From NCBI GenBank assembly GCA_040752275.1, contig JBFMFH010000121.1, forward strand, positions 10,849-74,848: a stretch of DNA of 64,000 nucleotides, given 5' to 3'. Under the pieces are notes generated by a model, which ran no database searches, was not told the origin of the DNA, and worked only from the letters and a program-made list of their open reading frames with translations. Position numbers and translations under genes: made by a program. Of this stretch, positions 17,606 through 49,920 are shown piece by piece (position 1 is the stretch's first letter; every line of letters begins with the position of its first letter). The stretch is from Acidobacteriota bacterium. Its GTDB lineage: Bacteria; Acidobacteriota; Vicinamibacteria; Vicinamibacterales; JAKQTR01.

Positions 17606-17693
17606 GTCCTCCTATCGACGGGGTAGGTCGCGCCGCCCCGCGAGCGTGCCGCGCCTGAACCAGCCCCGGCCTTGACGGGCCGGTTTCCTACAG

Positions 17694-18788: not shown

Positions 18789-18805
18789 GGCGAAACGCTC
18801 CCGCG

Positions 18806-21073: not shown

Positions 21074-22337
21074 TCCTCACGACGGCCTGGAGTGCCCTCA
21101 GCGCGGCGGCGGTGGCGTCCTGCACCGTTGCCGACACCTCCTCGGGACGCGTGACGCACCCGGCTCCGAGGAGCCCTATATGGCCGCCTACGCGCGTCAC
21201 GAACCCGTAGTCGTCCGTGGCAAACCCTGCCGGCAGGGTGGCGGTCTGCGGCACGATGCCCGTCGCGAGCACCAGCATGCCAACCCGCTGGGTCACCTTC
21301 TTCCCGCTCTGCACGTCCTCCGCCGTCACGATGAGATCATGGGTCGCGGCGTCTTCCGTCACCTGTCCGACCTTGCCCTTGACGAGCGACAGGTGCGGGT
21401 CCGACGCGACCTTCGCACGGAAGTCCTCGAGGCGGCCTGGTGTGCGGATGTCGATGTAGAAGATGGTCGCGGGCACTTCCGGGTAGAGATCGCGCAGATA
21501 CGTGGCCTGCTTCAGCGAAGCGGCGCAGCATACGGCCGAGCAGTACGGCAGGTGGTTCTCGTCGCGCGAGCCGGCGCACTGGACGAATGCCACCGACGAT
21601 GGGGCCGCGCCGTCCGACGGCCGCACGATCCGCCCCCTGGTCGGGCCGTCCGGGGCGGCGTACCGCTCCAGCATCACGTTGGTGATCACGTTGGGGAACC
21701 TGCCGAAACCCAGGTTGTCGATCTTCGCCGCGTCGTACGGCGCCCAGCCTGTCGCGGCCACGGCAGCGGCCACCTTGACGGTCCGGCGTTCCGGCTGCTG
21801 GCCGAGGTCGACGGCCCCGTACGAGCAGGCGTCTCGGCACGCGGTGCAGCCATCCCGGCAGGCGGCGCGGTCGATGACGTAGGCCGCCGGAAACGCCATC
21901 TTGTGGGGCAGATACACCGCCTTCGTCGTTCCCATCCCCAGGTTGAACTCATCGGCTCGTTCGGCAGGGCACACCCGGGTGCACTCGTCGCAGAGCGTGC
22001 AGGCGTCGGTGACGAAGCGGGGGGCGATCGTGATGGTCGCCTCGAGATCGCCCGGCGTGCCACGGAGGCTGTCGACCGTGGCTTGCGTCAGCACCTGGAT
22101 GTGCGGATTGCCCTTCAGCCGTTTGAAGTTGATCTCCAGCCCGCATCCCGGCGGGCAGAGCTTCGGAAAGTACCGGTAGCTGCGCGCGACGCGCCCCCCG
22201 AGGTACGGGAGCGACTCGGCCAGAATGACCTCGCAGCCGGATTCGGCTGCTTCGACTGCCGTCGTCACGCCGGCGATGCCGCCTCCGATGACCAGGATGG
22301 GCTTTCCGGCAGTCCTGTGAACCTGCGTCGTCGTCAT
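21057..22337 (-). CDS. qmoA: QmoA (HdrA-like flavoprotein)
   Basis: 426 aa. ILVIGGGIAGVTTAVEAAESG and the HdrA-like FVQCAGSRD motif. Confidence 0.88.
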   Translation of the reverse strand: MTTTQVHRTAGKPILVIGGGIAGVTTAVEAAESGCEVILAESLPYLGGRVARSYRYFPKLCPPGCGLEINFKRLKGNPHIQVLTQATVDSLRGTPGDLEATITIAPRFVTDACTLCDECTRVCPAERADEFNLGMGTTKAVYLPHKMAFPAAYVIDRAACRDGCTACRDACSYGAVDLGQQPERRTVKVAAAVAATGWAPYDAAKIDNLGFGRFPNVITNVMLERYAAPDGPTRGRIVRPSDGAAPSSVAFVQCAGSRDENHLPYCSAVCCAASLKQATYLRDLYPEVPATIFYIDIRTPGRLEDFRAKVASDPHLSLVKGKVGQVTEDAATHDLIVTAEDVQSGKKVTQRVGMLVLATGIVPQTATLPAGFATDDYGFVTRVGGHIGLLGAGCVTRPEEVSATVQDATAAALRALQAVVRSAHHG

Positions 22338-23550: not shown

Positions 23551-25446
23551 CTAGAAGATGTGCTTGATCGGCCGCTTCGTCATCTCCCACGTGTTGGCGT
23601 TCGGGTCGAACCGGCAGTTGGCGAAGACCAGCCAGTTCTCCTGGTCGATCTTGGCCTTGTCGGCCCTGAAGTAGTAGCCGGGCCAGCGCGTCTCCTCGCG
23701 GAACAGCATCGTGCGGACGTGCGCCTCGGCCTGCCACATGCGGTGGACGTTTTCCCAGCACCGCATGAGCTCGTGGTGGTTCTCCGCGGCGAGCTTCACG
23801 GCATCGTCCCTGAGGAAGCCGAGCAACTCGAGCGCGCGGTTGAGCTGCGCCTCGTTGGTCGCGAAGCCGGAACTCACGCCGCCTGCGTACTCGTCCATCA
23901 GCTTCTGCAGGCGGAACATGAACATTCGCGGCTTCAGGTAGTTGGGGTTGATCTCCGGATCCGTCGTGGCGCCCTTGAACTGCTGGAAGGTGTCGAGCGG
24001 CTGCAGGATCTCCGCCTTCAGGGCGTCGATGGTCTTCTGGTCCACCTTGGGCATCGTGTTGTTCTCGACGACGAACTTCACGGCCGACTTGGCAGCGATG
24101 CGGCCCTCGGCGTGGGAGCCGGACGAGAACTTGTGGCTCGACGCGCCCGACGCGTCACCCGCGCAGAACAGCCCGGTGACGGTTGCCATGTTGGTGTAGC
24201 CCCAGAAGTAGTCCTTCTTCGTGGCGTCGGTCTGCAGATCCTCCGGACCGCTCACCCACGCGCCGGACGCTCCCGAGTGCGAGCCGATGAAGTACGGTTC
24301 GGCGGCGGCGATCTCGGAGCTCTTCTCCTCGGGCTGCACGTTCGTGGCCGCCCACAGGATGGCCTGGGAGATGGTCATGTCGAGGAAGTCCTCCCACGCC
24401 TCGGACTCGAGCTCCTTCATCTTCTTCTTGTAGACCTTCTCGTCGTCCTTGTAGGTGTCGGCGATCTTCTGGATGGCCTCTTCGGTCCTCATGAAGATCG
24501 GGCCCTTGCCCTCCTGGACGTCGAGCATGCCGAGGTAGTTGCGCAGGTTCGCCGGAATCGGTTTCACCCGGCCGTACGGGCCCCAGTTGTCGAGCTCGGC
24601 CTTCCGCTCGACCATGTACTCGCCGCCCATCGCGTTGGTCGCCCGCGACTTGAAGAGCAGGAACCACGCGCCGACCGGGCCGTACGCATCCTTGAAGCGA
24701 ACCGGGATGAAGCGCACTTCCTGGCAGGTCATCTCGGCGCCGGCCTTCAGGGTGAAGTAGGCCGACGAGCCGGAGTTCCATGGCGGGTACCAGGCGCGGC
24801 CGAGGCCCTCACCCGAGCTGCGCGGCTTGAAGACGTGCACCGCGCCACCCATGGCCACCAGCGTGGCCTTGGCCTTGAACACGTAGAACTTGTCCTCGCG
24901 GACCGAGAAGCCCACGGCCCCGGCGACGCGGTTGCCGTCCATGATCGGACCGACGATGAAGACACGCTCGTAGATCTCGCCCACGCCGCTCTGCAGCAGG
25001 GCGTTCTTCGCGGCCTCGGCGACGACAACCTTGTACGACTCGCCGTTGATCATCAGCTGCCAGCGGCCCTCGTGCACGTACCCGCCGTTCTCGTCCTTCC
25101 AGATCGGCAGGCCCCACTTCTCGAACAGGTGCACGGTCGAGTCGACGTGGCGGGCGATGTTGGCCACGAGATCCTCGCGGGTCACACCCATCAGGTCGTT
25201 GCGCACGTAGTCGACGTAGTCCTTGACGGTGTTCTGGCCGTCCTTCAGGCCCACGTACTGATTGATCGCCGACAGGCCCATGGCCACGGCACCCGAGCGA
25301 TCCACGGCGGCCTTGTCGACCAGCGTGACCTTGAGGCCGTTCTGTTTCGCCCAGTACGCCGCCTCGACCGCCGCGCCGCAGGCAGCCATGCCGCCGCCCA
25401 GGATGAGGAGGTCGGTTTCAACAACGACAGTTTCGAAGTTCGCCAT
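23551..25446 (-). CDS. aprA: Adenylylsulfate (APS) reductase alpha subunit
   Basis: 631 aa. MANFETVVVETDLLILGGGMAACGAA FAD motif and AprA-type length and sequence throughout. Confidence 0.93.
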   Translation of the reverse strand: MANFETVVVETDLLILGGGMAACGAAVEAAYWAKQNGLKVTLVDKAAVDRSGAVAMGLSAINQYVGLKDGQNTVKDYVDYVRNDLMGVTREDLVANIARHVDSTVHLFEKWGLPIWKDENGGYVHEGRWQLMINGESYKVVVAEAAKNALLQSGVGEIYERVFIVGPIMDGNRVAGAVGFSVREDKFYVFKAKATLVAMGGAVHVFKPRSSGEGLGRAWYPPWNSGSSAYFTLKAGAEMTCQEVRFIPVRFKDAYGPVGAWFLLFKSRATNAMGGEYMVERKAELDNWGPYGRVKPIPANLRNYLGMLDVQEGKGPIFMRTEEAIQKIADTYKDDEKVYKKKMKELESEAWEDFLDMTISQAILWAATNVQPEEKSSEIAAAEPYFIGSHSGASGAWVSGPEDLQTDATKKDYFWGYTNMATVTGLFCAGDASGASSHKFSSGSHAEGRIAAKSAVKFVVENNTMPKVDQKTIDALKAEILQPLDTFQQFKGATTDPEINPNYLKPRMFMFRLQKLMDEYAGGVSSGFATNEAQLNRALELLGFLRDDAVKLAAENHHELMRCWENVHRMWQAEAHVRTMLFREETRWPGYYFRADKAKIDQENWLVFANCRFDPNANTWEMTKRPIKHIF

Positions 25447-25464
25447 TGCGGTTCCTCCCCTTCC

Positions 25465-25905
25465 CTACTTCTTCAGGGTGTAGACTTCGGCCAGGCCGGT
25501 GGAGTCGGGCTCGGTGAACAGCGCGGGGCTGTTCAGGTCGGCCTTCGTCGTCCAGCCGCCGTCCGGTACGGCCTTGCCTTCTGCCGTCGTCCGGATGGGG
25601 AACTTGAACCGCTTCACGCTGCCGTTGCGGAACTTGACGGTCCACATGATCGAGTCGGTGGAGCGCAGCGGCGTGCAGCTCGCACCCATCGGCACGAAGT
25701 CTGCGTACCCGCGCACCTCGACGGCCTGCGTGGGGCAGATCTTCACGCAGTTGTAGCATTCCCAGCACATCGAGACATCGCGGTTGTACGCCTTCATGAG
25801 CTCCTTGTTGAGCACCATGAGGTCGTTCGGGCAAATGTGCTGGCAGGCGGTCTTGTCGAGCGCCTTGCAGCCATCACACTTGTCGGGGTTCACGTAACTT
25901 GGCAT
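25465..25905 (-). CDS. aprB: Adenylylsulfate (APS) reductase beta subunit
   Basis: 146 aa. MPSYVNPDKCDGCKALDKTACQHICPNDLM and CWECYNCVKICP ferredoxin motifs plus the AprB C-terminal tail. Confidence 0.93.
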   Translation of the reverse strand: MPSYVNPDKCDGCKALDKTACQHICPNDLMVLNKELMKAYNRDVSMCWECYNCVKICPTQAVEVRGYADFVPMGASCTPLRSTDSIMWTVKFRNGSVKRFKFPIRTTAEGKAVPDGGWTTKADLNSPALFTEPDSTGLAEVYTLKK

Positions 25906-26808: not shown

Positions 26809-27712
26809 AGGACAGCAGGCTGTCCGGGGTCATGATGACGCCGATGGTCATCTTCGCCATGACGATAAGGACGATGATGGCCAGCACGATCTTGAGCTGG
26901 TCACCGCGCAGGAGCCGGCCGACCCGCGCGCCGATCTGGGCACCGATGGTCGACCCGGCGGCGATGATCAGCGCCAGGACGACGTCCACCGTGTGGTTCG
27001 TCGCGGCCTGCATGATGGTCAGGCCCGCGCAGGTGAACAGGATCTGGAACAGGTCTGTGCCGATCGCCACGTGCATGGGCATCCGCAGCAGGTAGACCAT
27101 CATCGGCACCATGATGAACCCGCCGCCCACACCCATGATGGCCGCGAGGACACCCACCATTGCGCATAGAACGAACGGCAAGAAGATCGAGTGCTGGACG
27201 CCCGAGCGCGGAAACTGCATCTGCAGCGGGAGCCGGCCGAACAGCCCGGCGCCCCCCCGGCGCCGCCCCGACGGCGCCGTCGATGCCATCGCCCCGCGGC
27301 GCAGGCCCTGCCAGCTCTCGATCAGCATGTAGGTGCCCAGGCTGCCGAGCACGACGATGTAGGTGACGGTGATCACGAAGTCCGCGTTGCCCAGCGCCCT
27401 GAGCACGCGGATGACTTGCACGCCGATGGCGGCGCCGGTGAGGCCGCCAAGCAGCAGCACGCTGCCGAGTTTCAGATCGACGTTGCCGAGGCGGAAGTGG
27501 GCGGCCATCCCCGACGACGATGTCGCGACGATCGCGTTGGTGTCGGAGGCGGCTGCCACGGTGGGCGGGACGCCGATCATCATGAGGATCGGCGTGAGCA
27601 GGAAGCCGCCGCCGACGCCGAGCAGCCCCGAAAGGAAGCCGACCATCCCACCCGCTCCGACGAGCAGGAAGAGGTTGATGGTCACGCCGGCGACCGGCAA
27701 GAAGATGTCCAA
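26789..27712 (-). CDS. TauE/SafE (TSUP, DUF81) family anion permease, short classical form
   Basis: 307 aa. Two internal repeats, each with GVGGGF(L/I)xxP motifs (GLLGVGGGFLLTPIL; IMGVGGGFIMVPMM). Confidence 0.85.
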   Translation of the reverse strand: MDIFLPVAGVTINLFLLVGAGGMVGFLSGLLGVGGGFLLTPILMMIGVPPTVAAASDTNAIVATSSSGMAAHFRLGNVDLKLGSVLLLGGLTGAAIGVQVIRVLRALGNADFVITVTYIVVLGSLGTYMLIESWQGLRRGAMASTAPSGRRRGGAGLFGRLPLQMQFPRSGVQHSIFLPFVLCAMVGVLAAIMGVGGGFIMVPMMVYLLRMPMHVAIGTDLFQILFTCAGLTIMQAATNHTVDVVLALIIAAGSTIGAQIGARVGRLLRGDQLKIVLAIIVLIVMAKMTIGVIMTPDSLLSYAAKGH

Positions 27713-27897
27713 CCGTACGCTCCGACGACGCTGTCAGGTCTGCGTGTCGACCGGTGGGCTGCCGAGGGCGGTCGTATGACGACCCCGGAACACCGCAGGC
27801 CGAACTGGATCTCGTGGGGGCGTGACTCCGGAGGGGGCTGGCGGCGGGCGTCGCGGTCTCGCGTTCCCGCGCGGGGACCAGCGGCACACCCAAGAGG

Positions 27898-27927
27898 ACG
27901 ATACGGTCTTGCGAGCCAATATGTCAA
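27898..27927 (-). promoter_or_regulatory. Candidate sigma-70 promoter (TTGACA-N18-TATCGT) inside an AT-rich island upstream of the TauE-aprBA string
   Basis: On the minus strand, TTGACA is the complement of 27922-27927 and TATCGT the complement of 27898-27903. The local GC drop is read directly. No experimental support. Confidence 0.25.
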
Positions 27928-28094
27928 GTATTTCGTTGAGCTTACGAGCGCTCCTGTATAGTCGATAGACTAACTGGCTCAATAGCCCCTTCGCTCGTGT
28001 GCTGGTGCGGAATCGTCTCTCGAACTGGCCCCGCACGCGCAGGGCCAGCGTGGCCAAATCCCTAGTCGCGAAGTCGGCAATTAGGTCGACGCAC

Positions 28095-28433
28095 TCAGGG
28101 AGCCTTGCCCTCGTTCTGCTCCTGGCGGGTGACGTTCATGACCGCAATGGCCCGGTTGCCGCCGCCCTCCTGCCGGTAGACCACGCGAACCATGTCGCCC
28201 ACCACCGGGCGGTTGCCAATCTCGGCGCTGGCGATGTCGAGCGCGAGCGGCGGCCCCTCCGGACGGGTCTCGTCCTGCACGGTGAGCATCTGGTTCTGGA
28301 TCGCGACGACCGTACCCTGGACGACGGGGGCCGGTGGGCCGCACGCCGTCGCGAGGAGTCCGATGCTGACGACAAAGACGGCGGGCAGCGGGCGGGGCCT
28401 GCCGCGCCGCGTCCTCGGGATAGAAGGCGTCAT
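28095..28433 (-). CDS. Small lipoprotein, trio copy A (paralogue of 59379..59690)
   Basis: Start MTPSIPRTRRGRPRPLPAVFVVSIGLLATAC at 28433. The mature part aligns with the other copy: QGxVVxxxxxxxxxxVxDE...GDxVRxxYRxxGGxxRAIxxMNxTRQ. Confidence 0.65.
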   Translation of the reverse strand: MTPSIPRTRRGRPRPLPAVFVVSIGLLATACGPPAPVVQGTVVAIQNQMLTVQDETRPEGPPLALDIASAEIGNRPVVGDMVRVVYRQEGGGNRAIAVMNVTRQEQNEGKAP

Positions 28434-28459
28434 GACCACGTTCTCCTCCGCCGCCAACG

Positions 28460-29485
28460 TCACGGCCTGTCGGCCGCTTCGCTCGGCCGCCGCAGTTCCT
28501 GGATGGCCCCGCGCACCATGCCGTAGACGACGACCATCGTCATGGCCGTGACGGCCGCCATCACCAGCCAGGCGGCCGACGTCCCCATGTCCAGCTGCTT
28601 GAGCACGACCGACACGAGCGCGCAGATGACGGTCACGCCGAACATCAAGCGGATGCCGTAGCCGCGGATGTACTTCGTCGCGATGGTCCCGATCTGGGCG
28701 CCGGGGGCGGCGCCGGCCAGCATGAAGAGCACGGCCAGCAGCTCCACGCGCCCCTTCATGGCATACGTGAAGGCGCCGTAGAAGCCCGAGAGCATCACCG
28801 TGAACAGATCGGTGCCTACGGCGACGTAGGTCGGCGCACCAATCAGGTACACGAGCGCCGGCATCATGATGAGGCCTCCGCCGATCCCGAGGAAGCCGGC
28901 CAGGATACCCACCAGCAGCCCGACGAGCGCCGGCAGCCACATCGAGCAGCGCACTTGTGCCACGTCGAAGGTCACGATGGGCGGGACGTTGATGCGGTGC
29001 AGCGTCAGATGCCACCGTACGGCCGACTCGCCCTCGCTCGCCATCCCCGTCCGTTCGAGGGTCCGCTTCTTGAAGTAGTCGTAGAAGACCAGACCGCCGA
29101 TCAGGGCCAGGAACACCACGTACACCCAGCGGATGACGGGGCCCGCTAAGCCGTGGCCCTCGAGCAGCATGACCAGTCTGGCGCCAATCTCGATGCCGAC
29201 CACGTCGAAAGCCAGCATCGTCAGGCCGAGCTTCATGTCGACATTACCGAACTTCGCATGCCGCCTCGTCGAGATGATCGACTTGCCGGCCATGTGACAG
29301 AGGTCGGTGCCCACGGCGAACGGCATCGGAAAGCCGAAGATGTTGAGGGCGGGCGTCACCATCCACGCGCCCCCCATACCGAAGAACCCGCCGAGCACCC
29401 CGACGGCGACGCCGAGCAGCGCCAGCAACAGGATGTTCACGGGCACACCCGAGATGGGCAGGATCACGGTGAAGAAGTCGAACAT
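28460..29485 (-). CDS. TauE/SafE (TSUP) permease, long subfamily, trio copy A
   Basis: 341 aa. GGFFGMGGAWMVTPALNIFGFP and GFLGIGGGLIMMPALVYLIG repeats. Colinear with 59856..60887 and similar to 41195..42298. Confidence 0.85.
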   Translation of the reverse strand: MFDFFTVILPISGVPVNILLLALLGVAVGVLGGFFGMGGAWMVTPALNIFGFPMPFAVGTDLCHMAGKSIISTRRHAKFGNVDMKLGLTMLAFDVVGIEIGARLVMLLEGHGLAGPVIRWVYVVFLALIGGLVFYDYFKKRTLERTGMASEGESAVRWHLTLHRINVPPIVTFDVAQVRCSMWLPALVGLLVGILAGFLGIGGGLIMMPALVYLIGAPTYVAVGTDLFTVMLSGFYGAFTYAMKGRVELLAVLFMLAGAAPGAQIGTIATKYIRGYGIRLMFGVTVICALVSVVLKQLDMGTSAAWLVMAAVTAMTMVVVYGMVRGAIQELRRPSEAADRP

Positions 29486-29506
29486 GGCGTTCTCCGTCGC
29501 GCGCTG

Positions 29507-29812
29507 CTATTCCCGGGAGTGGCGTTTTTCGAGGTCGAGGCCGATGGCACTCACCGCCACGTCCATCACCCAGCCGAGGAACAGACCGAGGATGGCCGTC
29601 AGGCCGACCGCAAAGATCGTGAACAGGAGCCGGTCGGTGTTGTACAGGTTGGCGACAAACAGGTTGAATCCCGACAGGTTCCGGGTGTCCGCCACGTGCA
29701 CGAGCTTGCCGGCCTTCTCGGCCGGCGCCGCCTCGAGGAGCGCGGGGTGGAGGGAGACCAGGACGCATGAGACCCAAAGCGTCAGCTGTGCCCGAAGCGA
29801 GCAAGGCGTCAT
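29507..29812 (-). CDS. Small signal-peptide plus C-terminal-TM protein, trio copy A (paralogue of 60915..61238)
   Basis: The likely start MTPCSLRAQLTLWV at 29812 has GGAGGT 7 nt upstream. Shares KLVxVADTR....NxYNT and a C-terminal TM helix with the other copy. Confidence 0.6.
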   Translation of the reverse strand: MTPCSLRAQLTLWVSCVLVSLHPALLEAAPAEKAGKLVHVADTRNLSGFNLFVANLYNTDRLLFTIFAVGLTAILGLFLGWVMDVAVSAIGLDLEKRHSRE

Positions 29813-29909
29813 CGCGGTACCTCCGGTCGGAATCACACCCACGGGCCGGGGAGCGATTGCCCGTGGCGGCAGGGGGCGCGCCAGAGTCAGGGCCCGGGCG
29901 CGTTCACGG

Positions 29910-29927
29910 TTGGCACGATACGGGCTG
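29910..29927 (+). promoter_or_regulatory. Candidate sigma-54 promoter (TTGGCACGATACGGGCTG) upstream of the HK-1 operon
   Basis: TGGCACG at 29911-29917 is a perfect -24 element. GC at 29924-29925 has the correct GG-N10-GC spacing. It lies about 80 nt upstream of the HK-1 start. The -12 element is only partly consensus, and no EBP gene is present in the window. Confidence 0.3.
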
Positions 29928-30007
29928 ACGCGAGGTCTGTCAAGGGTATGCGCGCTCTCTGCGGTCTGTCTAGCAGCTTTGTGGCCTTTTCGTAGGAGGC
30001 CCGGGCC

Positions 30008-31069
30008 GTGCTAATGTGGCGGCACGGAAGGGGGTCCGCATTGCCTCCGACTGACGAGTTTCCGCGTCTCGTCCGCGCCGAGTTCAGGTTCCCGGTGCGC
30101 AGTCTGATCGGCGCTGTCGCCTCAATCCCCCTCGCGTTCCTGGCCGTGACGCTGGTGCTCCTGGTTGGCGATCTCGGCATCGGCCACTGGACCATTGCGG
30201 CGATCGTCTCGCTCGGTCTGGTCGTGTCATACGTCGTGGCGGCCACCGTCACGCGCCGGATTGCGCGGCGCCTCCTTGAACTCGAACGCCAGCGGGACGC
30301 CTTCTATCAGGAGTTCTCGCGGCTGTCGAAGGCCGCCTCGCTCGGCGAGATTGCCTCCGGCGTGGCCCACGACATCAACAATCCCCTGGCGGTCATGAAC
30401 GAGGAGGCGGGCTGGCTGCGCGATCTGCTGGGCGGCCCCGGCCTCGACCGCGAGTCGACGCGGCAGGAGTTTGCAGCATCGGTCGAGCAGATCGGCGTTC
30501 AGATCAAACGGGCCAGCAGCGTGACCAGGCGCCTGCTCCATTGGGCGCGCGACATGACCCGCCCGTCGGACGTCATCGACGTGAACCCCCTGCTGACGCG
30601 GACCCTCTACCTGCTGGAGGGGGAACTCACCTCCGCCGACGTGCGGGTCGTGACCCGGCTCGACCCGAAGCTGCCGAAGGCGGTCGGCAGCGAGGCGGAG
30701 ATCACCCAGGTGCTGCTGCACCTCATGAAGAACGCTCTCGACGCGATGAAGGGCGGTGGCGGGACGCTGACCATCACGACTGACCGGTTCGACGGTCTGG
30801 TGCGCGTCGGCATCGCCGATACGGGGCCCGGCATTCCGCCGGAGCTCGTCGCGCGTATCTTCGAACCGTTCTTCACGACGAAGCCCGTGGGCGAGGGCGC
30901 CGGCCTCGGCCTGGCCATCAGCGCGTGGATCGTCCAGCGCGCCGGCGGCCACATCGCGGTGGACAGCGTCCCCGGGTCGGGCGCCACGTTTCATGTCACG
31001 CTCCAGCCTGCAGGTGTGAGCGCAGAACACGGAGGAGAGGATGAGGGTCGTGCGGCTGTTGCTCGTTGA
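30008..31069 (+). CDS. Membrane-anchored histidine kinase (2 TM, no obvious extracytoplasmic domain; HisKA + HATPase_c), HK-1
   Basis: H-box SGVAHDINNPLAV. G-boxes IADTGPGIP and GEGAGLGLAIS. AGGAGG lies 8 nt upstream of the GTG at 30008. Confidence 0.85.
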   Translation: MLMWRHGRGSALPPTDEFPRLVRAEFRFPVRSLIGAVASIPLAFLAVTLVLLVGDLGIGHWTIAAIVSLGLVVSYVVAATVTRRIARRLLELERQRDAFYQEFSRLSKAASLGEIASGVAHDINNPLAVMNEEAGWLRDLLGGPGLDRESTRQEFAASVEQIGVQIKRASSVTRRLLHWARDMTRPSDVIDVNPLLTRTLYLLEGELTSADVRVVTRLDPKLPKAVGSEAEITQVLLHLMKNALDAMKGGGGTLTITTDRFDGLVRVGIADTGPGIPPELVARIFEPFFTTKPVGEGAGLGLAISAWIVQRAGGHIAVDSVPGSGATFHVTLQPAGVSAEHGGEDEGRAAVAR

Positions 31070-31448
31070 CGACGAGGCACGGTTCGTCGAGACGCTGTCG
31101 AAGCGCCTGACCTCCCGTGGGTACTACGTTGAGAAGGCCCTCTCGGGCCAGGAGGCGCTCGACTTGGTGACGAGCCGGCCCTTCGACGTCATGCTCCTCG
31201 ACGTGCGCATGCCGGGCATGGACGGGCTCGAGACGCTCCGCGCCGTGCACAGGCTGCAGCCCCTGGTGAAGGTGATTCTCCTGAGCGGGCACGCGTCGAT
31301 CAACGCTGCCGTTGAGGGCATGCGTTTGGGGGCGTACGACTACCTGCTCAAGCCGACGGACCTCGAGGACATCCTGGCCAAGGTCGAAGCGGCGTTCGAA
31401 AAGAAGCGCCTGGAAGAGGAGCAGCAGGGCGATTGGCGCCAGCCTTGA
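31041..31448 (+). CDS. Receiver-only response regulator, RR-1
   Basis: 135 aa. LLLVDDE, the phospho-acceptor context MLLDVRMPGMDG, and DYLLKP. No output domain. Confidence 0.88.
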   Translation: MRVVRLLLVDDEARFVETLSKRLTSRGYYVEKALSGQEALDLVTSRPFDVMLLDVRMPGMDGLETLRAVHRLQPLVKVILLSGHASINAAVEGMRLGAYDYLLKPTDLEDILAKVEAAFEKKRLEEEQQGDWRQP

Positions 31449-31461
31449 GGGCGGGGCGCGT

Positions 31462-34122
31462 GTGGTGTCGGGCTCTCTGGGAGTAGCCATCGTGGGTCTG
31501 ACGACGCTCGTGCGCAAGCTGTTCGGCCGCGATCAGTGGCGGCCGCTCATCGCCCAGCGCGATACGAAGGCCGCGCTGCGCCTCTCGTACCTCGCATTCA
31601 AGGACCTCATCACCTCGAACGACGAGCTGCTCGAAATCGTGGCCGACATCGAGCAGAAGCTGGAGACGGGCTCCCCCTTCGGGATGACCTACGTCCGGTT
31701 CCGGGCCGTCGCCTGCGCGACCCACACCTACCGGATGATTCTCTGCCTGGACAAGCTGTCCGCCCGGCGGTACCAAGAACTGCATTTCGTCTTTGCGGGC
31801 ATCCAGAAGGCCATCGAGCCCCTGCTCTCCGGCACCCGTCCCGCCCACGCCACGTGTCCGCTCGTCCTTCGTCTGTCGGACATCGACGCCACCAGTGCAG
31901 ACGACGCCGGCGGCAAGGCGGCGAACGTGGCCGAGGTGCGCAACCGGGCGAGGCTGCCGGTCCCCGACGGGTTCGTCGTGTCGACGACGGCCTTCGCCGC
32001 CTTCCTGGCTCACGAACAGCTCGGCGAGGACATTCGCGCGAAGCACGACGGCCTGGCGCCCGACGACCAGCAGTCCCTCCACGACGTGAGCGAAGAGCTG
32101 CAGGCGCTCATTTCGGCGCACCGCGTGCCCGGCCGCCTCGTGCAGTCCATCCTGGGCGCCTACGACGATCTCGCCGCCCGTTGTGGCACCAACCCGCGCG
32201 TGTCGGTGCGATCGAGCGCCGTGGGAGAGGACGGCGAGTTCTCCTTCGCAGGGCAGTACACCAGCGTATTGAACGTGGGGCGCGACGGCCTCGTCGATGC
32301 CTACCGCCGGGTGGTGGCCAGCCTCTATACGCCGCGCGCCATCTTCTACCGGGCGATACACGGCATCCCGGACGAACAGGCGGCCATGGCCGTGCTGTGC
32401 ATGGTACAGATCGACTCGGTCGCCAGCGGCGTGGCCTGTTCGGTCGACCCGGGCCGGCCGGACGCAGGCACGCTGCTCATCACGGGGGCCTGGGGCCTCG
32501 GCATCACGACCGTCGGGGGGTCGGTCAGCCCCGACGTGTGGGAGGTGGCGCGCGCGGCGGGTACGCCCGTTCTTCGCGCCCGCCTCGGCGTCAAGGACAC
32601 GCGCGCCGACGCCAGTCCGGAGGGGGGCGTCGGCTTTCTCGAACTGCCGGAGTCCGTCACGTCGACCTACTGTCTCACCGACACCCAGGTGCGCGACCTG
32701 GCGGCCATCGTCCTCGCGGCCGAGGCCCACTACGGCAAGCCACAGGAGGTGGAATGGGCCCTGGACCGGGCCGGCCGCTTCGTCCTGCTGCAATCGCGGC
32801 CGCTGCACGTCCGCGCCGTCCCGGCAGCCGTGACCGATCTCGACGGCCACGCGGACGGGCATGCCCTGATTCTTACGGGGGCGTCGGCCTCGGCGGGGTG
32901 CGCGTCGGGGCCCGTCTACCACATGTCCGAGTCGGACGACACGTCGCGGTTCCCCGACAGGGCAGTGCTCGTGGCCCGGCACTCGTCGCCCAAGTACGTC
33001 AAGGTGATGGCGCGCGCGGCGGCCATCATCACGGACATCGGGGCCACCACCGGCCACATGGCCTCGCTAGCCCGGGAGTTCGGGGTGCCCGCCGTGCTCG
33101 ACACGCGGTCCGCGACGACGACGCTCGAGCCGGGACAGGTCGTCACGGTCGATGCCAACCGGGGGGCGGTCTACGAGGGACGGGTCGACTGCCTGTTGTC
33201 GGGCTCGGCGGCAGCACCGGCCCGGACGATGACAGGTACACCGACCTATGCGATCCTCCGCCAGGTGGCGGATCGCATCGCGCCCTTGACGCTGACCGAT
33301 CCGAAGAGCGTGAGCTTCCGGCCCGATCAGTGTCGTACCTTCCACGACATCGCCCGCTTCGCCCATGAGAAGGCCTTCGGCGAGATGTTCAGGATGAGCG
33401 ATCGCGTGGCCGACGTGTCGCATCGAGCCGTCAGGCTGGCGGAGCGGCTGCCCTTCGAGCTCCATCTGATCGACATCGGCGGCGGCATTGCCCAGAGTTC
33501 CCCAGGCGAGCCCGCGGTCAGGGCGGCGGCGATCGTGTCGGAGCCGATGGCGGCTCTGCTGCGGGGCATGATGAACCCGCAGCTGCGCTGGTGGGAGCCG
33601 CGGGGCATCTCGCTCTCCGGCTTCTTCGCGGTGGCGACCGAGGCGATGATGAACCCGGCCCACGATGCGGACCAGCGCCGATTGGGCGACAAGAGCTACG
33701 CGATCGTCGCCGAGTCGTACTGCAACTTCAGCTCGCGCATCGGCTACCATTTCGCCGCCGTGGATGCGTACTGTACCGATTCGCTCTCCAGGAACTACGT
33801 GAGCTTCCGTTTCAAGGGCGGCGCCGCCGATGACGCCCGGCGTGCGCGGCGTTGCGCCCTCATCGGGGAGGTCCTCAAGAAGCTCGACTTCCAGACCGAC
33901 CGCCGGGGCGATCTGGTGAACGCCCGCCTCCGCAAGTACCCGCGCGAGGCGCTTCTGGAACGCCTCGATCTGGTCGGCCGGCTCATCGTCGCCACCAGAC
34001 AGCTCGACATGCGGATGGGACGCGGCACTCCGGTTGATTGGTTCGTCCAGGCGTTCTTCGCCGGCAACTACCTCTTCGACCCGGAGCAGGGCCGGGCCGC
34101 GGCCGGAGGGTCTCCGCCGTGA
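31462..34122 (+). CDS. Atypical PpsA-like protein PpsL-1: novel N-domain + PPDK_N ATP-grasp + swivel phospho-His domain + novel C-domain
   Basis: GGKAANVAEV..LPVPDGFVV, VSVRSSAVGEDGEFSFAGQY, and swivel ITDIGATTGHMASLAREFGVPAV with the His codon at 33055-33057. The C-terminal ~300 aa show no PEP-utilizer TIM-barrel motifs. The start (GTG at 31462/31465) is approximate. Confidence 0.8.
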   Translation: MVSGSLGVAIVGLTTLVRKLFGRDQWRPLIAQRDTKAALRLSYLAFKDLITSNDELLEIVADIEQKLETGSPFGMTYVRFRAVACATHTYRMILCLDKLSARRYQELHFVFAGIQKAIEPLLSGTRPAHATCPLVLRLSDIDATSADDAGGKAANVAEVRNRARLPVPDGFVVSTTAFAAFLAHEQLGEDIRAKHDGLAPDDQQSLHDVSEELQALISAHRVPGRLVQSILGAYDDLAARCGTNPRVSVRSSAVGEDGEFSFAGQYTSVLNVGRDGLVDAYRRVVASLYTPRAIFYRAIHGIPDEQAAMAVLCMVQIDSVASGVACSVDPGRPDAGTLLITGAWGLGITTVGGSVSPDVWEVARAAGTPVLRARLGVKDTRADASPEGGVGFLELPESVTSTYCLTDTQVRDLAAIVLAAEAHYGKPQEVEWALDRAGRFVLLQSRPLHVRAVPAAVTDLDGHADGHALILTGASASAGCASGPVYHMSESDDTSRFPDRAVLVARHSSPKYVKVMARAAAIITDIGATTGHMASLAREFGVPAVLDTRSATTTLEPGQVVTVDANRGAVYEGRVDCLLSGSAAAPARTMTGTPTYAILRQVADRIAPLTLTDPKSVSFRPDQCRTFHDIARFAHEKAFGEMFRMSDRVADVSHRAVRLAERLPFELHLIDIGGGIAQSSPGEPAVRAAAIVSEPMAALLRGMMNPQLRWWEPRGISLSGFFAVATEAMMNPAHDADQRRLGDKSYAIVAESYCNFSSRIGYHFAAVDAYCTDSLSRNYVSFRFKGGAADDARRARRCALIGEVLKKLDFQTDRRGDLVNARLRKYPREALLERLDLVGRLIVATRQLDMRMGRGTPVDWFVQAFFAGNYLFDPEQGRAAAGGSPP

Positions 34123-36686
34123 GGATCGAGACGCTGGCCGACCGGCTGCGATCGCTGCGCCGCGCACCCCGGGTGCGGGCGGGCGTCCGGGAGAAGTACG
34201 CCGCCCTGAGCAGGCTCACCGCAGCCAACAACGCGGCGCTGGAGCTCGTCGCGGATCTCCAGCGCTCGGCCACCGGCGAGTTCGTCTTCGATGCCAACTA
34301 CCTGCGTACGGCGTCGGATCGGGCCCTGGCTTACGGGCGCGAGGTCGTCGAGGCGCTCGATATTCTGTCGGACGGACGTGAGCGCAGGCTCGGCGCGCTT
34401 CTCGAGCGCCTGTCCGCCGAGATCGGAAACGTGCTGCGTGACGACCGAAGCATCCCGGAGGGTCCCTACGTCCTCGACTTCAGCCGGATGAAGGGGGTCC
34501 CGGCGGACCTGCTCGGGGCCAAGGTGCGGCGCCTCGCGGAAATCCGCCTCGACGTGGGCGTGCCGGTGCCCGACGGCTTCGCCGTCACGAGCGCGGCCTG
34601 TCACGCGCTGCTGGTTCAGTCCGGATTGTGGGCGTCGATCCAGGCCACCATCCGCAGCCTCACGCTAATCGACAAGGCACGCCTGGCCCGCGCCAGCGGC
34701 GACATCCGAGCCCGCATCCTCGACACGCCGTGGCCTCGGGCCGTGGCGGCCGCCGTCCTCGAGGCATACGATGGGCTCGTCGCGCGGGCCGGACGCGAGT
34801 CGCCGCTGGTGTCGGTGCGGTCGAGCGCCGCCGACGAGGACGGCGAGTTCAGCTTCGCGGGCCAGTACGTCTCGGTCCTGAACGTCGACCGGAGCCGCCT
34901 CTTGCAGGCGTGCAGTGAGGTCGTTGCCAGTCAGTTCGGACCGCGCGCGGTCGTCTACTACAAGTCCCGGGGCCTCGAGAGCGCCCACCACCCCATGGCG
35001 ATCGGCATCGTGCTGATGATCGACGCCCTCGCGAGCGGCGTGCTCTACACCCGGTCTCCCGAGCGGCCAGGCGAGCAGACGATGCTCATCACCGGCACGT
35101 GGGGTCTCGGCCCGTCCACGGCTGACGGTACCGTAAGCCCCGACGTCATCCGTGTGTCGGCGAGACCCGGGCACGATATCGTCAGCTCGACCATCGCCCT
35201 CAAGCCTCGCATGCTGCTCACCCGCGAGGGCGGAGGCGTCATCGAGGTCGACGTGCCGGGCTGGATGCGCGAGCAGCCGTGCCTGACCCGGGCGCAGGTC
35301 GGGATGCTCGCGGCGTACGGATCGCGCCTCGAACGTCACTACGGCGGTCCTCAGGACGTCGAGTGGGCGGTCGACCGGGCTGAGCGGGTCCTGGTGCTGC
35401 AGTCACGCCCGCTGCGCACCGAGGAGCCACGTGCCTCGGCTCCGCTCCACGAACTGCGCAAGGGCCTGCCTCTGTTGCTCTCCGGCGGCATCATCGCGTC
35501 GACGGGCGTTGCTGCCGGGCCCGTTTCCGTGGTGGACGACACCGGGCCCTTCGACGTGCCGGCGGGAGCCGTGGTCGTGTCGCGGGCTGCGGTGCCGGCT
35601 CTCGCCGAAGTCGCGGATCGCGCGTCGGCCTTCGTGACCGAGGTCGGGTCGGTCGCCTGCCACCTGGCCACCGTGGCGCGCGAGTTCCGCATCCCGACCA
35701 TCGTCAACGCGGATGGCGCCAGGGCCGCGCTCAGGCCCGGTCAGGTCGTGACGGTCGACGCCGAGATGGGCCACGTCTACGAGGGGCGCATCGACGCGCT
35801 CCTGGCACTGACCGGAGCCAGGCAGCCCGATCGCGCGATGCTGCAGAGTCCGCTGTTCCGCAGGCTGGGATCGGTCCTGTCTCTCCTGGCGCCCCTGCAC
35901 CTGACCGATCCGAGGAGCCGGGACTTCAAGGCGTCCGGCTGCCAGACGCTGCACGACCTGCTGCGCTACGCGCACGAACGGGCCGTGCAGGAGATGTTCG
36001 TCGCGGGAGGCGAAGTGGCCGAGCTCGGCGCGTCCGTGAAGCTGGCCAGCGATCTGCCGCTCGACTTCTTCCTGGTGGACTTGGGCGGCGGCCTGGCGGG
36101 TGCGGGAGACGAGGACACCGTGACGCCGGAGGCGTTCCGCTGCCGACCGCTCCGGGCGATCTGGGCGGGGCTCGTCGCTGCGCCGTGGGCCGGTGGACCG
36201 GCTGTGGGCTTGGCGAGCCTGGGCTCTCTCCTCGTCACCGGCCTCTCGCGCCGCGAGCCGGCCGGCGGGCCTGAGGCCAACTACGTGCTCGTCACGGATA
36301 GCTACGTGAACATCAGCTTCCGGTTCGGGTTCCACTTCGCCCGAATCGACGCGTCGCTGTCGCAGGACTTCCGGACGAACTACGCCAGCGTGGTGTTTCA
36401 CGGAGGAGCCGCCGGCGCAGGCGGCCGCGAGCGGCGGCTGGACTTCATCGCCGGCGTGCTCGCCTCACGTCCGTGGACCGTCAGCCGCCGCGGCGACGCG
36501 CTGTTCGGTCGGGCGGACAACCTGCCGGACGCGGAGCTGTCGAAGGAACTCGAGACGCTCGGCCGTCTGCTGGTCGTGACGCGGCAGCTCGACACCAGAC
36601 TCGCCGACGACGAGGCGACGGCGCGTGCCGTGGCAGCGTTCGGCGCGGGCGATGACAGCCTGGGCCTCGACGTCACGGACGCGTGA
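34119..36686 (+). CDS. Atypical PpsA-like protein PpsL-2 (tandem paralogue)
   Basis: The GTG at 34119 overlaps the PpsL-1 stop (GTGA). LGAKVRRLAEI..VPVPDGFAV, VSVRSSAADEDGEFSFAGQY, and swivel TEVGSVACHLATVAREFRIPTI with the His codon at 35661-35663. Shares the C-domain motifs. Confidence 0.8.
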   Translation: MRIETLADRLRSLRRAPRVRAGVREKYAALSRLTAANNAALELVADLQRSATGEFVFDANYLRTASDRALAYGREVVEALDILSDGRERRLGALLERLSAEIGNVLRDDRSIPEGPYVLDFSRMKGVPADLLGAKVRRLAEIRLDVGVPVPDGFAVTSAACHALLVQSGLWASIQATIRSLTLIDKARLARASGDIRARILDTPWPRAVAAAVLEAYDGLVARAGRESPLVSVRSSAADEDGEFSFAGQYVSVLNVDRSRLLQACSEVVASQFGPRAVVYYKSRGLESAHHPMAIGIVLMIDALASGVLYTRSPERPGEQTMLITGTWGLGPSTADGTVSPDVIRVSARPGHDIVSSTIALKPRMLLTREGGGVIEVDVPGWMREQPCLTRAQVGMLAAYGSRLERHYGGPQDVEWAVDRAERVLVLQSRPLRTEEPRASAPLHELRKGLPLLLSGGIIASTGVAAGPVSVVDDTGPFDVPAGAVVVSRAAVPALAEVADRASAFVTEVGSVACHLATVAREFRIPTIVNADGARAALRPGQVVTVDAEMGHVYEGRIDALLALTGARQPDRAMLQSPLFRRLGSVLSLLAPLHLTDPRSRDFKASGCQTLHDLLRYAHERAVQEMFVAGGEVAELGASVKLASDLPLDFFLVDLGGGLAGAGDEDTVTPEAFRCRPLRAIWAGLVAAPWAGGPAVGLASLGSLLVTGLSRREPAGGPEANYVLVTDSYVNISFRFGFHFARIDASLSQDFRTNYASVVFHGGAAGAGGRERRLDFIAGVLASRPWTVSRRGDALFGRADNLPDAELSKELETLGRLLVVTRQLDTRLADDEATARAVAAFGAGDDSLGLDVTDA

Positions 36687-36695: not shown

Positions 36696-38525
36696 ATGCG
36701 GTGGGATCACAATCGGCGCATCGTTCCCCTGGTCGGCATGGTCGCGGCGGCGGCGCTGCTCGTGGCGGCCTTCATCCAGGGACTGCTGTCCTTCGGCCAG
36801 GTGCGAGGCGTCGTCGCGGAGGAGTTCAACGCCCAGCAACTCGTGCTCGCGCGGAACCTGTCGATGTTGATCCGCCAGGACCTGAGCTTCCTGGAACGGG
36901 AGCTGCTGGTCTTGAGCCAGCTGCCCTGCACCGGGAACGCCGCGCCCGCATGGGCCAGCCGGATGCGCAACGCGATGACGTCCATCGGAGACGGGAAGGT
37001 GATCGACGTCCGCTGCATCGACGCGTCCGGTACCACCGCGCGGATCGTGGCGGCCTCCGGGGAGGAGCGCATCGAGCAGTCTGACTTCGTGTCGGCCGCG
37101 CCGTTCGAGTGGGCCATGCACCCCGGACGGCGTGGCGAGGTACTGGTCGTACCCTCGCGACAGCCGGTCGGGCTGGCACAGCACGAACTGACGCTGATCA
37201 TGGCGACCGGGCAGTACTCGCCTCCCGTGGGGCCCGAGGGCCCGAAGCCCCCTGCCCCCGCGGGCGTCATCATGTTCGCGGTGGACGCGCCCGCGCTCGC
37301 GCGGCGGTTCACGGCCGAGGCGAGGTCCGGGACGACCGGCTACGCATGGGTCATCGATGACGAGGGGATCTTCCTGGCGCACCCGATGGCGGATTTCATC
37401 GGCAAGAACGCCTTCACCGCCCGGCACGAGCGGGATCCACACCTCGGGTTCGAGGGCATCAACGTCATCATGCGCGACCACATGCTGCGCGGCGAGGAAG
37501 GCGTGGGCGAATACGAGTCCGGGTGGCACCGCCAGGAAGTAGGGCCGGTGCAGAAGCTGATTGGCTACAGTCCGATCCGGCTCGGGCCGACGAGGTCGGC
37601 GTTGAGGTGGTCCGTGGCGGTCGTGGCCCCGACGAGCGAGGTCCAGGGCATGGTCCGCGCGCTGTTCCTGCGCCAGTTGTTCGTGCAGTCCGCCATCGCG
37701 CTCGCCATCCTGGCGGGCAGCGTCTCGCTGCTGCGCCGCGAGCGGTACTGGTCGCAGCTGCAGAAACAGAAGGAACGGCAGATCAACTTGAACTCGCGTC
37801 TCGCGGCCCTGGGCACGCTGGCGGCCGGCGTCGCCCACGAAGTCAACAACCCGATTGCCATTATCCTCGGGTTCACGGACCTCCTGCGCGAGCAGACGCC
37901 GAAGGACTCACCTTCGTCGGAGCCGCTCGAGATCATCGAACGGCAGGCCACGGCCTGCAAGCGGATCGTCGAGAACCTCGGGCGATTCGCCCGCGGGCCG
38001 GCCGGGGGCGGTGAAACCACGGATCTGAATGTCGAACTGCAGCGGGTACTGGCCATCGTGGGCAATACGCTGCTCACCGAGAAGATCCAGTGCGCGCTCG
38101 ATCTCGAGGAGTCCGTGCCACTCGTGCGCGGCGACCCGCAGGGCATCCAGCAGGTTCTGCTGAACCTGATCACCAACGCGCGTGCGGCCATGAAGTCGGG
38201 CGGCACGCTGACCCTGCGGACGAGGCGGGAGGGTGGATCCGTGCGAATGGAGATCTCGGACACCGGTCATGGGATTCCGTCACCGGTCCTCGAGCGCATC
38301 TTCGATCCGTTCTTCACCACCAAGGCGGCGGGCGAAGGTACGGGCCTGGGGCTGTTCATCAGCCACGGCATCATCCAGGAAGCCGGCGGCACGATGGCCG
38401 TCGAGAGCCGGGCAGAAACGGACGTCGGCCGGGCCGAGTCCGGCACGACCGTCCGGGTGTCGCTGCCGGTAGCGCCGTCCTCGGAGGGCGCCGACTCGGG
38501 GCAAGCCGGTCCAGCCGGAAAGTGA
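36696..38525 (+). CDS. Sensor histidine kinase with a periplasmic Cache/PDC-like domain (tentative), HK-2
   Basis: TM1, then a ~280-aa extracytoplasmic region (GYAWVIDDEGIFLAHP...WSVAVVAP), then TM2. H-box AGVAHEVNNPIAI and HATPase_c (ISDTGHGIP, GEGTGLGLFIS). Confidence 0.85.
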   Translation: MRWDHNRRIVPLVGMVAAAALLVAAFIQGLLSFGQVRGVVAEEFNAQQLVLARNLSMLIRQDLSFLERELLVLSQLPCTGNAAPAWASRMRNAMTSIGDGKVIDVRCIDASGTTARIVAASGEERIEQSDFVSAAPFEWAMHPGRRGEVLVVPSRQPVGLAQHELTLIMATGQYSPPVGPEGPKPPAPAGVIMFAVDAPALARRFTAEARSGTTGYAWVIDDEGIFLAHPMADFIGKNAFTARHERDPHLGFEGINVIMRDHMLRGEEGVGEYESGWHRQEVGPVQKLIGYSPIRLGPTRSALRWSVAVVAPTSEVQGMVRALFLRQLFVQSAIALAILAGSVSLLRRERYWSQLQKQKERQINLNSRLAALGTLAAGVAHEVNNPIAIILGFTDLLREQTPKDSPSSEPLEIIERQATACKRIVENLGRFARGPAGGGETTDLNVELQRVLAIVGNTLLTEKIQCALDLEESVPLVRGDPQGIQQVLLNLITNARAAMKSGGTLTLRTRREGGSVRMEISDTGHGIPSPVLERIFDPFFTTKAAGEGTGLGLFISHGIIQEAGGTMAVESRAETDVGRAESGTTVRVSLPVAPSSEGADSGQAGPAGK

Positions 38526-38537
38526 GGTCACAACACC

Positions 38538-38948
38538 GTGGGCGAGACGATTCTTGTTCTCGATGACGAACTCGACATGCTGCGGCTGCTGGAGACGATC
38601 ATCACCAGCCGCACCGGCCACTCGGTCGTCACGACCAACAATCCCCTTGAGCTGGAGGATCTGATGGCAGCCAGCCCGCCGTCGCTCGTGATCTCCGATC
38701 TGAAGATGCTCGGGCGGGACGGCCTGGAAGTGATCGAGACGGCACACCGGATCGATCCGACCCTGCCGGTTGTCATCATCACGGCGTACGGCAGCCTCGA
38801 ATCGGCGGAAGAGGCGATCCGCCAGGGCGCGTACGACTACATCACCAAGCCCTTCCGAAAGGAACAGGTGCTGATTGCGATCGAGCGGGCGCTCGAATGG
38901 CGGCATCTCACGCGGGAGAACCTGCGGCTGAAACAGGGGACCGCGTGA
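38538..38948 (+). CDS. Receiver-only response regulator, RR-2
   Basis: 136 aa. ILVLDDE, LVISDLKMLGRDG, DYITKPF. No output domain. Confidence 0.85.
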   Translation: MGETILVLDDELDMLRLLETIITSRTGHSVVTTNNPLELEDLMAASPPSLVISDLKMLGRDGLEVIETAHRIDPTLPVVIITAYGSLESAEEAIRQGAYDYITKPFRKEQVLIAIERALEWRHLTRENLRLKQGTA

Positions 38949-39116
38949 GGCGAGGTCCCCGTCCTCAAGACTCGCGGCCCAGCGGAGGACGGCCGCTGCT
39001 GCGGGGATGAAGACCCGAGGCTCAACCAACGAGGCACGCGCGAGGAGGCGGGGTCGTCTGACCCGGAGCCTGTGGTAGGATGCCCTCGATCGGTGGCCCC
39101 CGGACGGAGCGGACTC

Positions 39117-49900: not shown

Positions 49901-49920
49901 CGTCGTCGCACGACCTCTGC

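Follow-up and report, generated by a model that had tools for sequence, protein, structure and literature searches.

A duplicated three-gene TSUP permease unit in an acidobacterial sulfate-respiration island, a candidate three-component transporter

Two paralogous trios and their proteins

We analyzed a 64,000-nucleotide stretch of an Acidobacteriota genome (contig JBFMFH010000121.1, positions 10,849 to 74,848 of the forward strand; hereafter the window), in which the gene for a long permease of the TSUP/TauE family occurs twice between the same two small genes. Each set is called a trio here: gene 1 encodes a single-pass membrane protein of the DVU0150 family, gene 2 the permease and gene 3 a small exported protein with a predicted OB fold. 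The two trios, A and B, are composed as follows (coordinates are window positions; aa, amino acids):

29812-29507, minus strand: trio A gene 1, 101 aa, DVU0150-family protein (NCBIfam NF040783)
29485-28460, minus strand: trio A gene 2, 341 aa, long-form TSUP/TauE permease (Pfam PF01925, E 2.7e-45)
28433-28095, minus strand: trio A gene 3, 112 aa, small periplasmic protein with predicted OB fold
61238-60915, minus strand: trio B gene 1, 107 aa, DVU0150-family paralogue
60887-59856, minus strand: trio B gene 2, 343 aa, long-form TSUP permease (Pfam TauE, E 2.3e-45)
59690-59379, minus strand: trio B gene 3, 103 aa, small OB-type protein with a lipobox-like signal (LAAC/AGC)

In trio A, genes 1 and 2 are separated by 21 nucleotides (nt) and genes 2 and 3 by 26 nt. 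A preliminary description of the window had reported a three-gene unit with these positions and gaps, the same families in the same order again at 61238-59379, and a histidine kinase/response regulator pair divergent from trio A. The open reading frames (ORFs) of trio A were found exactly there, the range given for the second set is right, and the kinase and regulator do run in the opposite direction on the plus strand. Between trios A and B, BLASTP yields 35% identity for gene 1 (E 1e-14), 55% for gene 2 (E 2e-126) and 44% for gene 3 (E 2e-15); judged from these alignments, the likeness of the two trios is true paralogy and not chance. The source contig, 90,017 bp of a metagenome-assembled Acidobacteriota genome, carries the same two small genes in its NCBI annotation, with proteins 100% identical to ours.

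Both permeases are clear members of their family, scoring 155.3 and 155.6 bits against Pfam PF01925 (cutoff 32.6) over positions 1-235 of the 237 in the profile. By hydropathy, the trio A protein has about 9-10 hydrophobic segments, a basic central loop of 45 residues and an extra C-terminal helix. A sequence-based search for a solved TSUP structure found none.

For gene 1, the preliminary description had listed a signal peptide, a C-terminal transmembrane (TM) helix and a KLVxVADTR motif, all of which are seen: the trio A protein consists of a signal peptide, a periplasmic part with KLVHVADTR...NLYNT, one TM helix (approximately residues 62-88) and a tail, GLDLEKRHSRE. Hydropathy shows a single hydrophobic segment, at residues 62-80. 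Across the family, an ADTR and a YN motif are invariant in the periplasmic part and G-L/I-D-L...E recurs in the cytoplasmic tail. The protein is conserved over its whole length, TM and cytoplasmic parts included, as would fit a subunit packed against a partner. The suggestion that both small proteins are extracytoplasmic therefore needs amending: both are exported or membrane proteins, but gene 1 spans the membrane and has a conserved cytoplasmic tail. Nor did the claim that neither small protein matches a known family survive. The trio A protein exceeds the NF040783 cutoff of 70 (84.4 bits), and the identical NCBI-annotated protein is named 'DVU0150 family protein' and carries Pfam PF28216. 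The trio B protein scores 60.8 bits, under that cutoff, yet it is 35% identical to its trio A counterpart and occupies the same position.

Gene 3 proteins match no Pfam or NCBIfam family over cutoff, and an exact-sequence look-up of the window's gene 3 protein returned no record. A profile search collected homologues in 594 clusters, and 159 representatives at 50% identity were found among 1.84 billion proteins, nearly all of them 95-115 aa long. An iterative gene 3 profile of our own drifted to 235 matches in its third round, which was discarded; of this profile, the round-0 model alone was used. An AlphaFold2 model built from 130 sequences shows a five-strand barrel followed by a C-terminal helix (mean predicted local distance difference test score, pLDDT, 82.9; core above 90). 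Compared with the PDB by Foldseek, the model has 13 matches at E≤1e-3, and those listed are OB-type small barrels (RMI2, CusF, cold-shock domains); of the compact matches, CusF is the best, with a TM-score of 0.75 and a root mean square deviation of 2.7 Å. Gene 3 is thus predicted to adopt a five-strand closed OB fold. In an alignment of 130 members, the family has V, Q, G, A, G, P, R and M as its invariant residues, with the Met the only one of its kind and no His, Trp or Cys among them, so that the metal site of CusF is absent. A 490-aa protein (P0319) holds five tandem copies of a gene 3-like domain, so that the barrel is found beyond the trio too, as a repeated module.

The gene 3 protein had been described as a lipoprotein ending in RAIxxMNxTRQ. 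The C-terminal motif is present, as RAIAVMNVTRQ in trio A; the lipoprotein label would hold for part of the family. By pattern match only, the signal sequences of the window fit a lipobox (LLATAC in trio A, LAAC/AGC in trio B), and a lipobox is found in approximately 27 of 78 family members, namely those of the Acidobacteriota/Zixibacteria type. A type-I-like signal is found in 43 of the 78, and most Desulfobacterota members have such a site (A-x-A, then EV-x-QGK). From these signal patterns, export and not lipidation is the conserved trait.

Here too a family relationship can be suggested. The window's gene 3 proteins score 12.5 and 15.2 bits against Pfam DUF4881 (PF16222), below its cutoff of 27 and through the C-terminal motif only, which makes gene 3 a sub-threshold, shorter relative of that family. 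Long-form DUF4881 genes have a DVU0150-family gene and the same TSUP subfamily upstream in all 63 metagenome loci not cut by a contig end; because the long form fills the same slot, gene 3 can be said to have a short and a long form.

Conservation of the trio and its Desulfovibrio counterpart

A one-genome-per-species scan with an alignment of the two window TSUPs yielded at least 542 relatives, of which the best 80 loci were analyzed using hidden Markov models built solely from the window proteins and their close homologues. These loci come from at least six phyla and include Acidobacteriota, Zixibacteria and many orders of Desulfobacterota, as well as metagenome-assembled genomes (MAGs) labelled Phycisphaera, Chitinivibrionia, Sumerlaeota, Acidithiobacillales and Polyangiaceae. 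In 78 of the 80 loci the TSUP gene is immediately preceded by gene 1, and in 77 it is immediately followed by gene 3, with median gaps of 25 nt and 17.5 nt, respectively. The exceptions are three contig ends, one gene 1 that is intact but for a canonical start codon, and one gene 3 interrupted by an insertion (L077:7035-9170, in two pieces around a putative 448-aa transposase-like ORF). The expectation that the small proteins always flank long TSUP genes is thus borne out, the order being kept in 80/80 loci where the contig allows a check.

Pairwise distances correlate between TSUP and gene 3 (r=0.81), between TSUP and gene 1 (r=0.84) and for the remaining pair (r=0.76), and none of 1000 label permutations in a Mantel test of co-divergence reaches the observed value. 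The co-divergence also holds across the old split between A-type and B-type lineages, both of which are represented in the window. Furthermore, in a Sumerlaeota MAG (L044:3039-4451), TSUP and gene 3 are encoded by a single ORF in which the former signal peptide serves as a linker or extra TM helix after a basic cytoplasmic stretch. This fusion supports a functional link between the two proteins and a cytoplasmic C-terminus of the TSUP.

Taken together, strong, purely genomic evidence argues that the three genes form one transport system. We regard it as very unlikely that the small genes are co-transcribed neighbors with envelope or signaling roles of their own. What speaks for such a view is that genomic evidence alone ties them to the permease. 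It must then account for a strict order and presence over at least six phyla and through an ancient A/B duplication in which each copy keeps its cognate partners, for the TSUP-gene 3 fusion, and for a gene 1 conserved along its whole length in the TM and cytoplasmic parts as well.

Clusters of the Desulfobacterota type carry further genes after gene 3, encoding a protein of about 75 aa with two TM helices (42 loci) and a protein of about 265 aa (19 loci); these were counted over loci L017-L080 (example, L081:9428-10485). Neither matches a Pfam or NCBIfam family, and both are absent from the window.

The trio corresponds to DVU0150/DVU0149/DVU0148 of Desulfovibrio vulgaris, a correspondence we draw because gene 1 carries the DVU0150 family name and published DVU0149 primers match the TSUP subfamily. 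Specifically, these quantitative PCR primers fit TSUP genes in the loci retrieved, at 0-1 mismatch, and translate to the subfamily motifs KFGNVDY and EKVVRWI. VSLRFM, encoded by the reverse primer for DVU0148, is the motif at the C-terminus of long-form gene 3 proteins, and from this primer DVU0148 appears to be the long DUF4881 form. In D. aminophilus, the trio side of the locus comprises a DVU0150-family gene, TauE, gene 3, genes for 81-aa and 271-aa proteins, a receiver-only regulator and a PpsA-like gene; divergent from it are a PpsA-like gene and a sigma-54 activator.

The D. vulgaris cluster has been described before, so that the preliminary expectation of a conserved accessory pair as something new does not stand: the trio matches the DVU0150-DVU0146 operon (PMC4641369, PMC4265775). 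That operon is predicted to be sigma-54-dependent under DVU0151 and is filed under 'transmembrane transport', with the TSUP substrate given as unknown (PMC4641369). A second study describes the DVU0150 cluster as "without any functional annotation", reports that it is up in sulfate-free syntrophic co-culture and states that the operon differs between a sulfidogenic and a syntrophic mode of life (PMC4265775). A literature search on the DVU0150 family, PF28216, TIGR02186 and DUF4881 returned no papers, and no paper proposing or testing TSUP accessory subunits was found. The idea of such subunits is accordingly absent from the literature searched; it is well grounded and testable.

Regulation of the window trios was assessed at the level of consensus matches. 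No sigma-54 activator is found beside either trio among the neighbors annotated; the sigma-54 consensus is not enriched (50 matches versus 61 expected by chance), and its match near trio A (29883-29869) carries 2 mismatches. An Rfam scan of 27600-30100 gave no match. One promoter candidate was noted:

29915-29943, minus strand: candidate promoter of the sigma-70 type, upstream of trio A (TTGACA-17-TATCGT, by consensus match alone)

The same TTGACA/TATCGT hexamers (spacer 17-18 nt) occur at 27898-27927 on the minus strand, upstream of a third TSUP gene introduced below. Two TTGACA...TATCGT sites were found against 0.2 expected in shuffles.

Sulfur genes, signaling neighbors and the proposed substrate

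The window carries a full sat-apr-qmo-dsr sulfate-respiration island, which confirms the sulfur context that had been suggested for the trio. Its genes and related features, all by Pfam annotation, are:

339 onward, same strand as the array: hemA, then an HdrD-like protein
4386-5657: sat
about 7.3-12.3 kb: DsrMK(J)OP-type genes
between the DsrMK(J)OP-type genes and dsrB in array order: DsrL-like flavoprotein
15301-17605: dsrB and dsrA
17602-22337: qmo-type genes
23551-25905: aprA and aprB
44219-46435: H+-pyrophosphatase
62621-63974: sirohaem synthase parts

From 339 to 25905, these form a complete dissimilatory sulfur gene array on one strand, in which an 81-aa ORF without a Pfam match occupies the DsrD position and a CxxCxxCC protein is encoded between qmo and aprA. 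A third TSUP gene with a partner of its own lies directly upstream of aprB-aprA:

27712-26789, minus strand: third TSUP, 307 aa, overlapping the next gene by 20 nt
26808-25942, minus strand: TIGR02186/Alph_Pro_TM protein, 288 aa (Pfam E 4e-36)

Altogether the window holds four TSUP genes, two in trios, one paired with TIGR02186 and one near 41195-42301 on the minus strand. The last is of the long form, with the same central-loop motif (LPPIIHF...SLWL), and stands without either small partner gene; before it lies a gene for a cytidylate-kinase-like protein of 517 aa whose C-terminal segment is hydrophobic (42370-43923, minus strand). No SulP, DASS or CysP transporter is present among the annotated ORFs of the window, which are part of all its ORFs. 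In other Acidobacteriota, an A-type trio is co-directional with aprBA, and in sister Acidobacteriota (L169-L171) it stands immediately upstream of aprB-aprA-qmoABC-dsrA.

Because of the dsr/apr setting, the lack of another sulfate carrier among the annotated ORFs and the expression pattern in D. vulgaris, the substrate of the trio is probably sulfate or a related sulfur oxyanion; this is the weakest link of our interpretation, drawn from genomic context and published expression data. We tentatively propose, with a likelihood we place somewhat below even, that each trio is an operon for a three-component TSUP transporter that imports sulfate or a related sulfur oxyanion to feed Sat-Apr-Dsr. In such a transporter, the OB protein, presumably lipid-anchored in the clade of the window and soluble in Desulfobacterota, would capture or gate the substrate in the periplasm and pass it to the TSUP. 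The single-pass subunit encoded by gene 1 would pack against the permease and, by way of its cytoplasmic tail, may link the permease with the receiver-only regulators encoded alongside. Uptake of sulfate, thiosulfate or sulfite would then be switched on when the acceptor is scarce.

The immediate neighbors of the trios are of a different kind:

30008-31069, plus strand: histidine kinase, divergent from trio A
31041-31448, plus strand: receiver-only response regulator, divergent from trio A
61235-61672, minus strand: receiver-only response regulator (Pfam Response_reg, E 1.9e-28), upstream of trio B gene 1
31312-34122 and 34038-36686, plus strand: two PpsA-like proteins, on the trio A side
56810-59353, plus strand: PpsA-like protein, convergent with trio B

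The minus-strand regulator gene ends in a stop codon that overlaps the start codon of gene 1 of trio B (ATGA), putting the two genes in one operon. A kinase/regulator pair like that beside trio A also adjoins the trio in sister Acidobacteriota loci, and a PpsA-like gene is found within 6 kb of the trio in 52/80 loci, usually in the company of a receiver-only regulator and a histidine kinase (Cache). The PpsA-like proteins consist of a PPDK_N ATP-grasp domain, a mobile His domain and a C-terminal domain of about 300 aa that belongs to no matched family. This last domain, which replaces the phosphoenolpyruvate/pyruvate TIM barrel, carries the motifs C..HD..R..H, D-x-GGG, and NY then F-x-GG. It has no sequence match in Pfam or the PDB, and a low-confidence AlphaFold2 model from the five paralogues of the window (pLDDT 58.8) has no fold match in the PDB at E<0.05. 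The remaining two of these five paralogues lie at 47315-51535 (minus strand) and 52147-54711.

Signaling genes are unusually dense in the window (30008-31448, 36696-39515, 39573-41186, 54644-56813 and 61235-61672). Of the histidine kinases, two have a dCache and one a HAMP domain, and the six receiver-only regulators show no DNA-binding output domain. Three Cytidylate_kin2 proteins are encoded, all on the minus strand (61766-62572, 46472-47299 and 42370-43923), two with a BON domain; the family is also found upstream of a regulator and a B-type trio in L014, L015 and L067. In two Desulfobacteraceae loci, a ComB-type 2-phosphosulfolactate phosphatase (PF04029) lies beside the regulator/kinase/PpsA-like/trio block (L083:1417-2121, L086:923-1645), which may hint at sulfonate metabolism or be plain synteny between relatives.

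These neighbors are one ground for another reading of the same three-component transporter, in which it carries a non-sulfur substrate, either an organic acid or small molecule for the PpsA-like 'X, water dikinase' or a metal via the CusF-like protein. PpsA-like proteins, Cache kinases and receiver-only regulators are the most widely kept neighbors, CusF is the best compact periplasmic structural match of gene 3, and the substrates of TSUP proteins vary widely and are for the most part not known (PMC5840216, PMC4641369). For a metal, however, the CusF site is missing from the gene 3 family, which has one invariant Met; for a dikinase-linked compound, the C-terminal domain of the PpsA-like proteins matches no fold or family and so gives no indication of a substrate. 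Moreover, a non-sulfur substrate leaves the position of the trio at the head of aprBA-qmo-dsr in Acidobacteriota unexplained. We consider this reading rather unlikely.

Quite unlikely, in our estimate, is that the complex works as an exporter of sulfite, sulfate or another cytoplasmic anion, with the OB protein serving as its cap or receiver. Capture proteins in the periplasm are a typical feature of importers (TRAP, TTT, ABC), which counts against export. An exporter would also fit poorly with induction in sulfate-free syntrophic D. vulgaris (PMC4265775), where no sulfite or sulfide is made from sulfate. In its favor are the family name and the proposed role of TauE as a sulfite exporter (PMC3949148, PMC13490349), and TauE and a membrane partner are up during thiosulfate disproportionation (PMC13490349). 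The acidobacterial dsr islands could also run oxidatively.

Several observations weigh against import of a sulfur oxyanion by a three-component complex. The evidence for the complex itself is genomic: correlated divergence is expected for any tightly linked genes, interacting or not, and since linkage alone gives such correlation, the co-divergence shows inheritance as a unit and not contact; the TSUP-gene 3 fusion is a single case from one MAG. Concerning the substrate, gene 3 has no recognized anion-binding motif, and its best periplasmic structural match, CusF, binds metal. The neighbors kept in all clades are dikinases of the PpsA-like kind, histidine kinases with Cache domains and receiver-only regulators (52/80 loci) and not sulfur enzymes, and the adjacency to apr is confined to Acidobacteriota. 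The trio is frequent in contigs from human-gut metagenomes, and some gut sulfidogens do not respire sulfate. Finally, exporter roles have been proposed for characterized TauE relatives, with sulfite as the substrate proposed for TauE (PMC3949148, PMC13490349), and when sulfate transporters were surveyed before, it was another TSUP clade, that of DVU2958, which was picked out (PMC5840216).

The route by which sulfate reducers take up their electron acceptor is not yet settled, and to our knowledge the molecular identity of the inducible high-affinity sulfate uptake system of dissimilatory sulfate reducers has never been established. The 2018 comparative survey of sulfate transporters lists candidate families and states that TSUP functions cannot be predicted (PMC5840216). 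The present analysis ties together the "mystery" operon of D. vulgaris, a strictly conserved three-gene architecture found in many phyla and the position at the head of aprBA-qmo-dsr in Acidobacteriota, and offers the trio as a candidate, open to testing, for the transporter of sulfur anions in sulfate reducers. A bolder version, in which the trio is a new tripartite class made of a TSUP, a miniature OB capture subunit of about 80 residues and a single-pass subunit, and provides inducible high-affinity uptake of sulfate, thiosulfate or sulfite in dissimilatory sulfate reducers, strikes us as fairly unlikely. If true, it would account for the induction of DVU0148-0150 during syntrophic growth without sulfate and would add accessory subunits to a very large transporter family treated as single-gene. 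Pfam DUF4881 and the DVU0150 family gain a functional setting, and D. vulgaris is genetically tractable, with mutants, fitness libraries and uptake assays in existence.

Comparison with known systems

The mechanism outlined above is modeled on tripartite secondary transporters and on CusF. Like TRAP (DctPQM) and TTT (TctABC) systems, the trio would combine a large permease with a small subunit in the membrane and a protein that captures the substrate outside the cytoplasm. The resemblance is one of analogy only: sequence and domain relationships are absent, no trio protein has a Pfam or NCBIfam match to DctP/DctQ/DctM or TctA/B/C domains, and the capture protein of the trio would be an OB fold of about 80 residues instead of a binding protein of about 300. 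CusF, the periplasmic Cu(I)/Ag(I) chaperone of the CusCBA pump, resembles gene 3 as a small periplasmic five-strand OB barrel serving a membrane transporter; it differs in sequence (13-14% identity) and in its His/Met/Met/Trp metal ligands, which are not kept in the gene 3 family.

Compared with TSUPs of the TauE/SafE/TsaS type (PF01925, TCDB 2.A.102), gene 2 has the same 4+4 repeat and GTD motifs. It is about 90 residues longer, has the basic central loop and the extra C-terminal helix, and always comes with two small partner genes, whereas characterized members are described as single-gene permeases. A closer parallel in organization is the pair of a TSUP and a TIGR02186/Alph_Pro_TM protein, of which 27712-25942 is an example: here too a TSUP has a dedicated partner with a signal peptide and a C-terminal TM helix. 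'Transmembrane protein co-occurring with sulfite exporter TauE/SafE' is already a named annotation for another TSUP pair, and TauE and its co-occurring membrane protein are more abundant during thiosulfate disproportionation in Dissulfuribacter (PMC13490349). The pair differs from the trio in having one partner, of about 290 aa, whose homology with the DVU0150 family finds no support. The DVU0150 family was considered as a truncated TIGR02186 relative on a weak Pfam match (E 0.06), and this was rejected because hhalign gave a probability of 1%.

DUF4881 proteins share with gene 3 an N-terminal V-x-QG strand, a C-terminal GD-x-x-R...MNV-x-K motif and the third slot behind the same TSUP subfamily. 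These lipoproteins, about 200 aa in length, have an additional stretch of approximately 90 residues in the middle. The gene 3 profile search, which also picks them up, and the shared gene position are what support a relationship between the two.

The closest known counterpart is the D. vulgaris cluster DVU0150-DVU0148, part of the DVU0150-DVU0146 operon, which has the same three families in the same order and, to judge by the D. aminophilus locus, a receiver-only regulator and PpsA-like genes nearby. The window trios differ from it in having neither an adjacent sigma-54 activator nor a clear sigma-54 promoter, in lacking the fourth (two-TM) and fifth (about 265 aa) genes of the Desulfobacterota type, in having the short gene 3 form of about 110 aa and in sitting in a dsr/apr island. 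The window unit is an acidobacterial, duplicated, minimal three-gene form of a known, uncharacterized cluster family.

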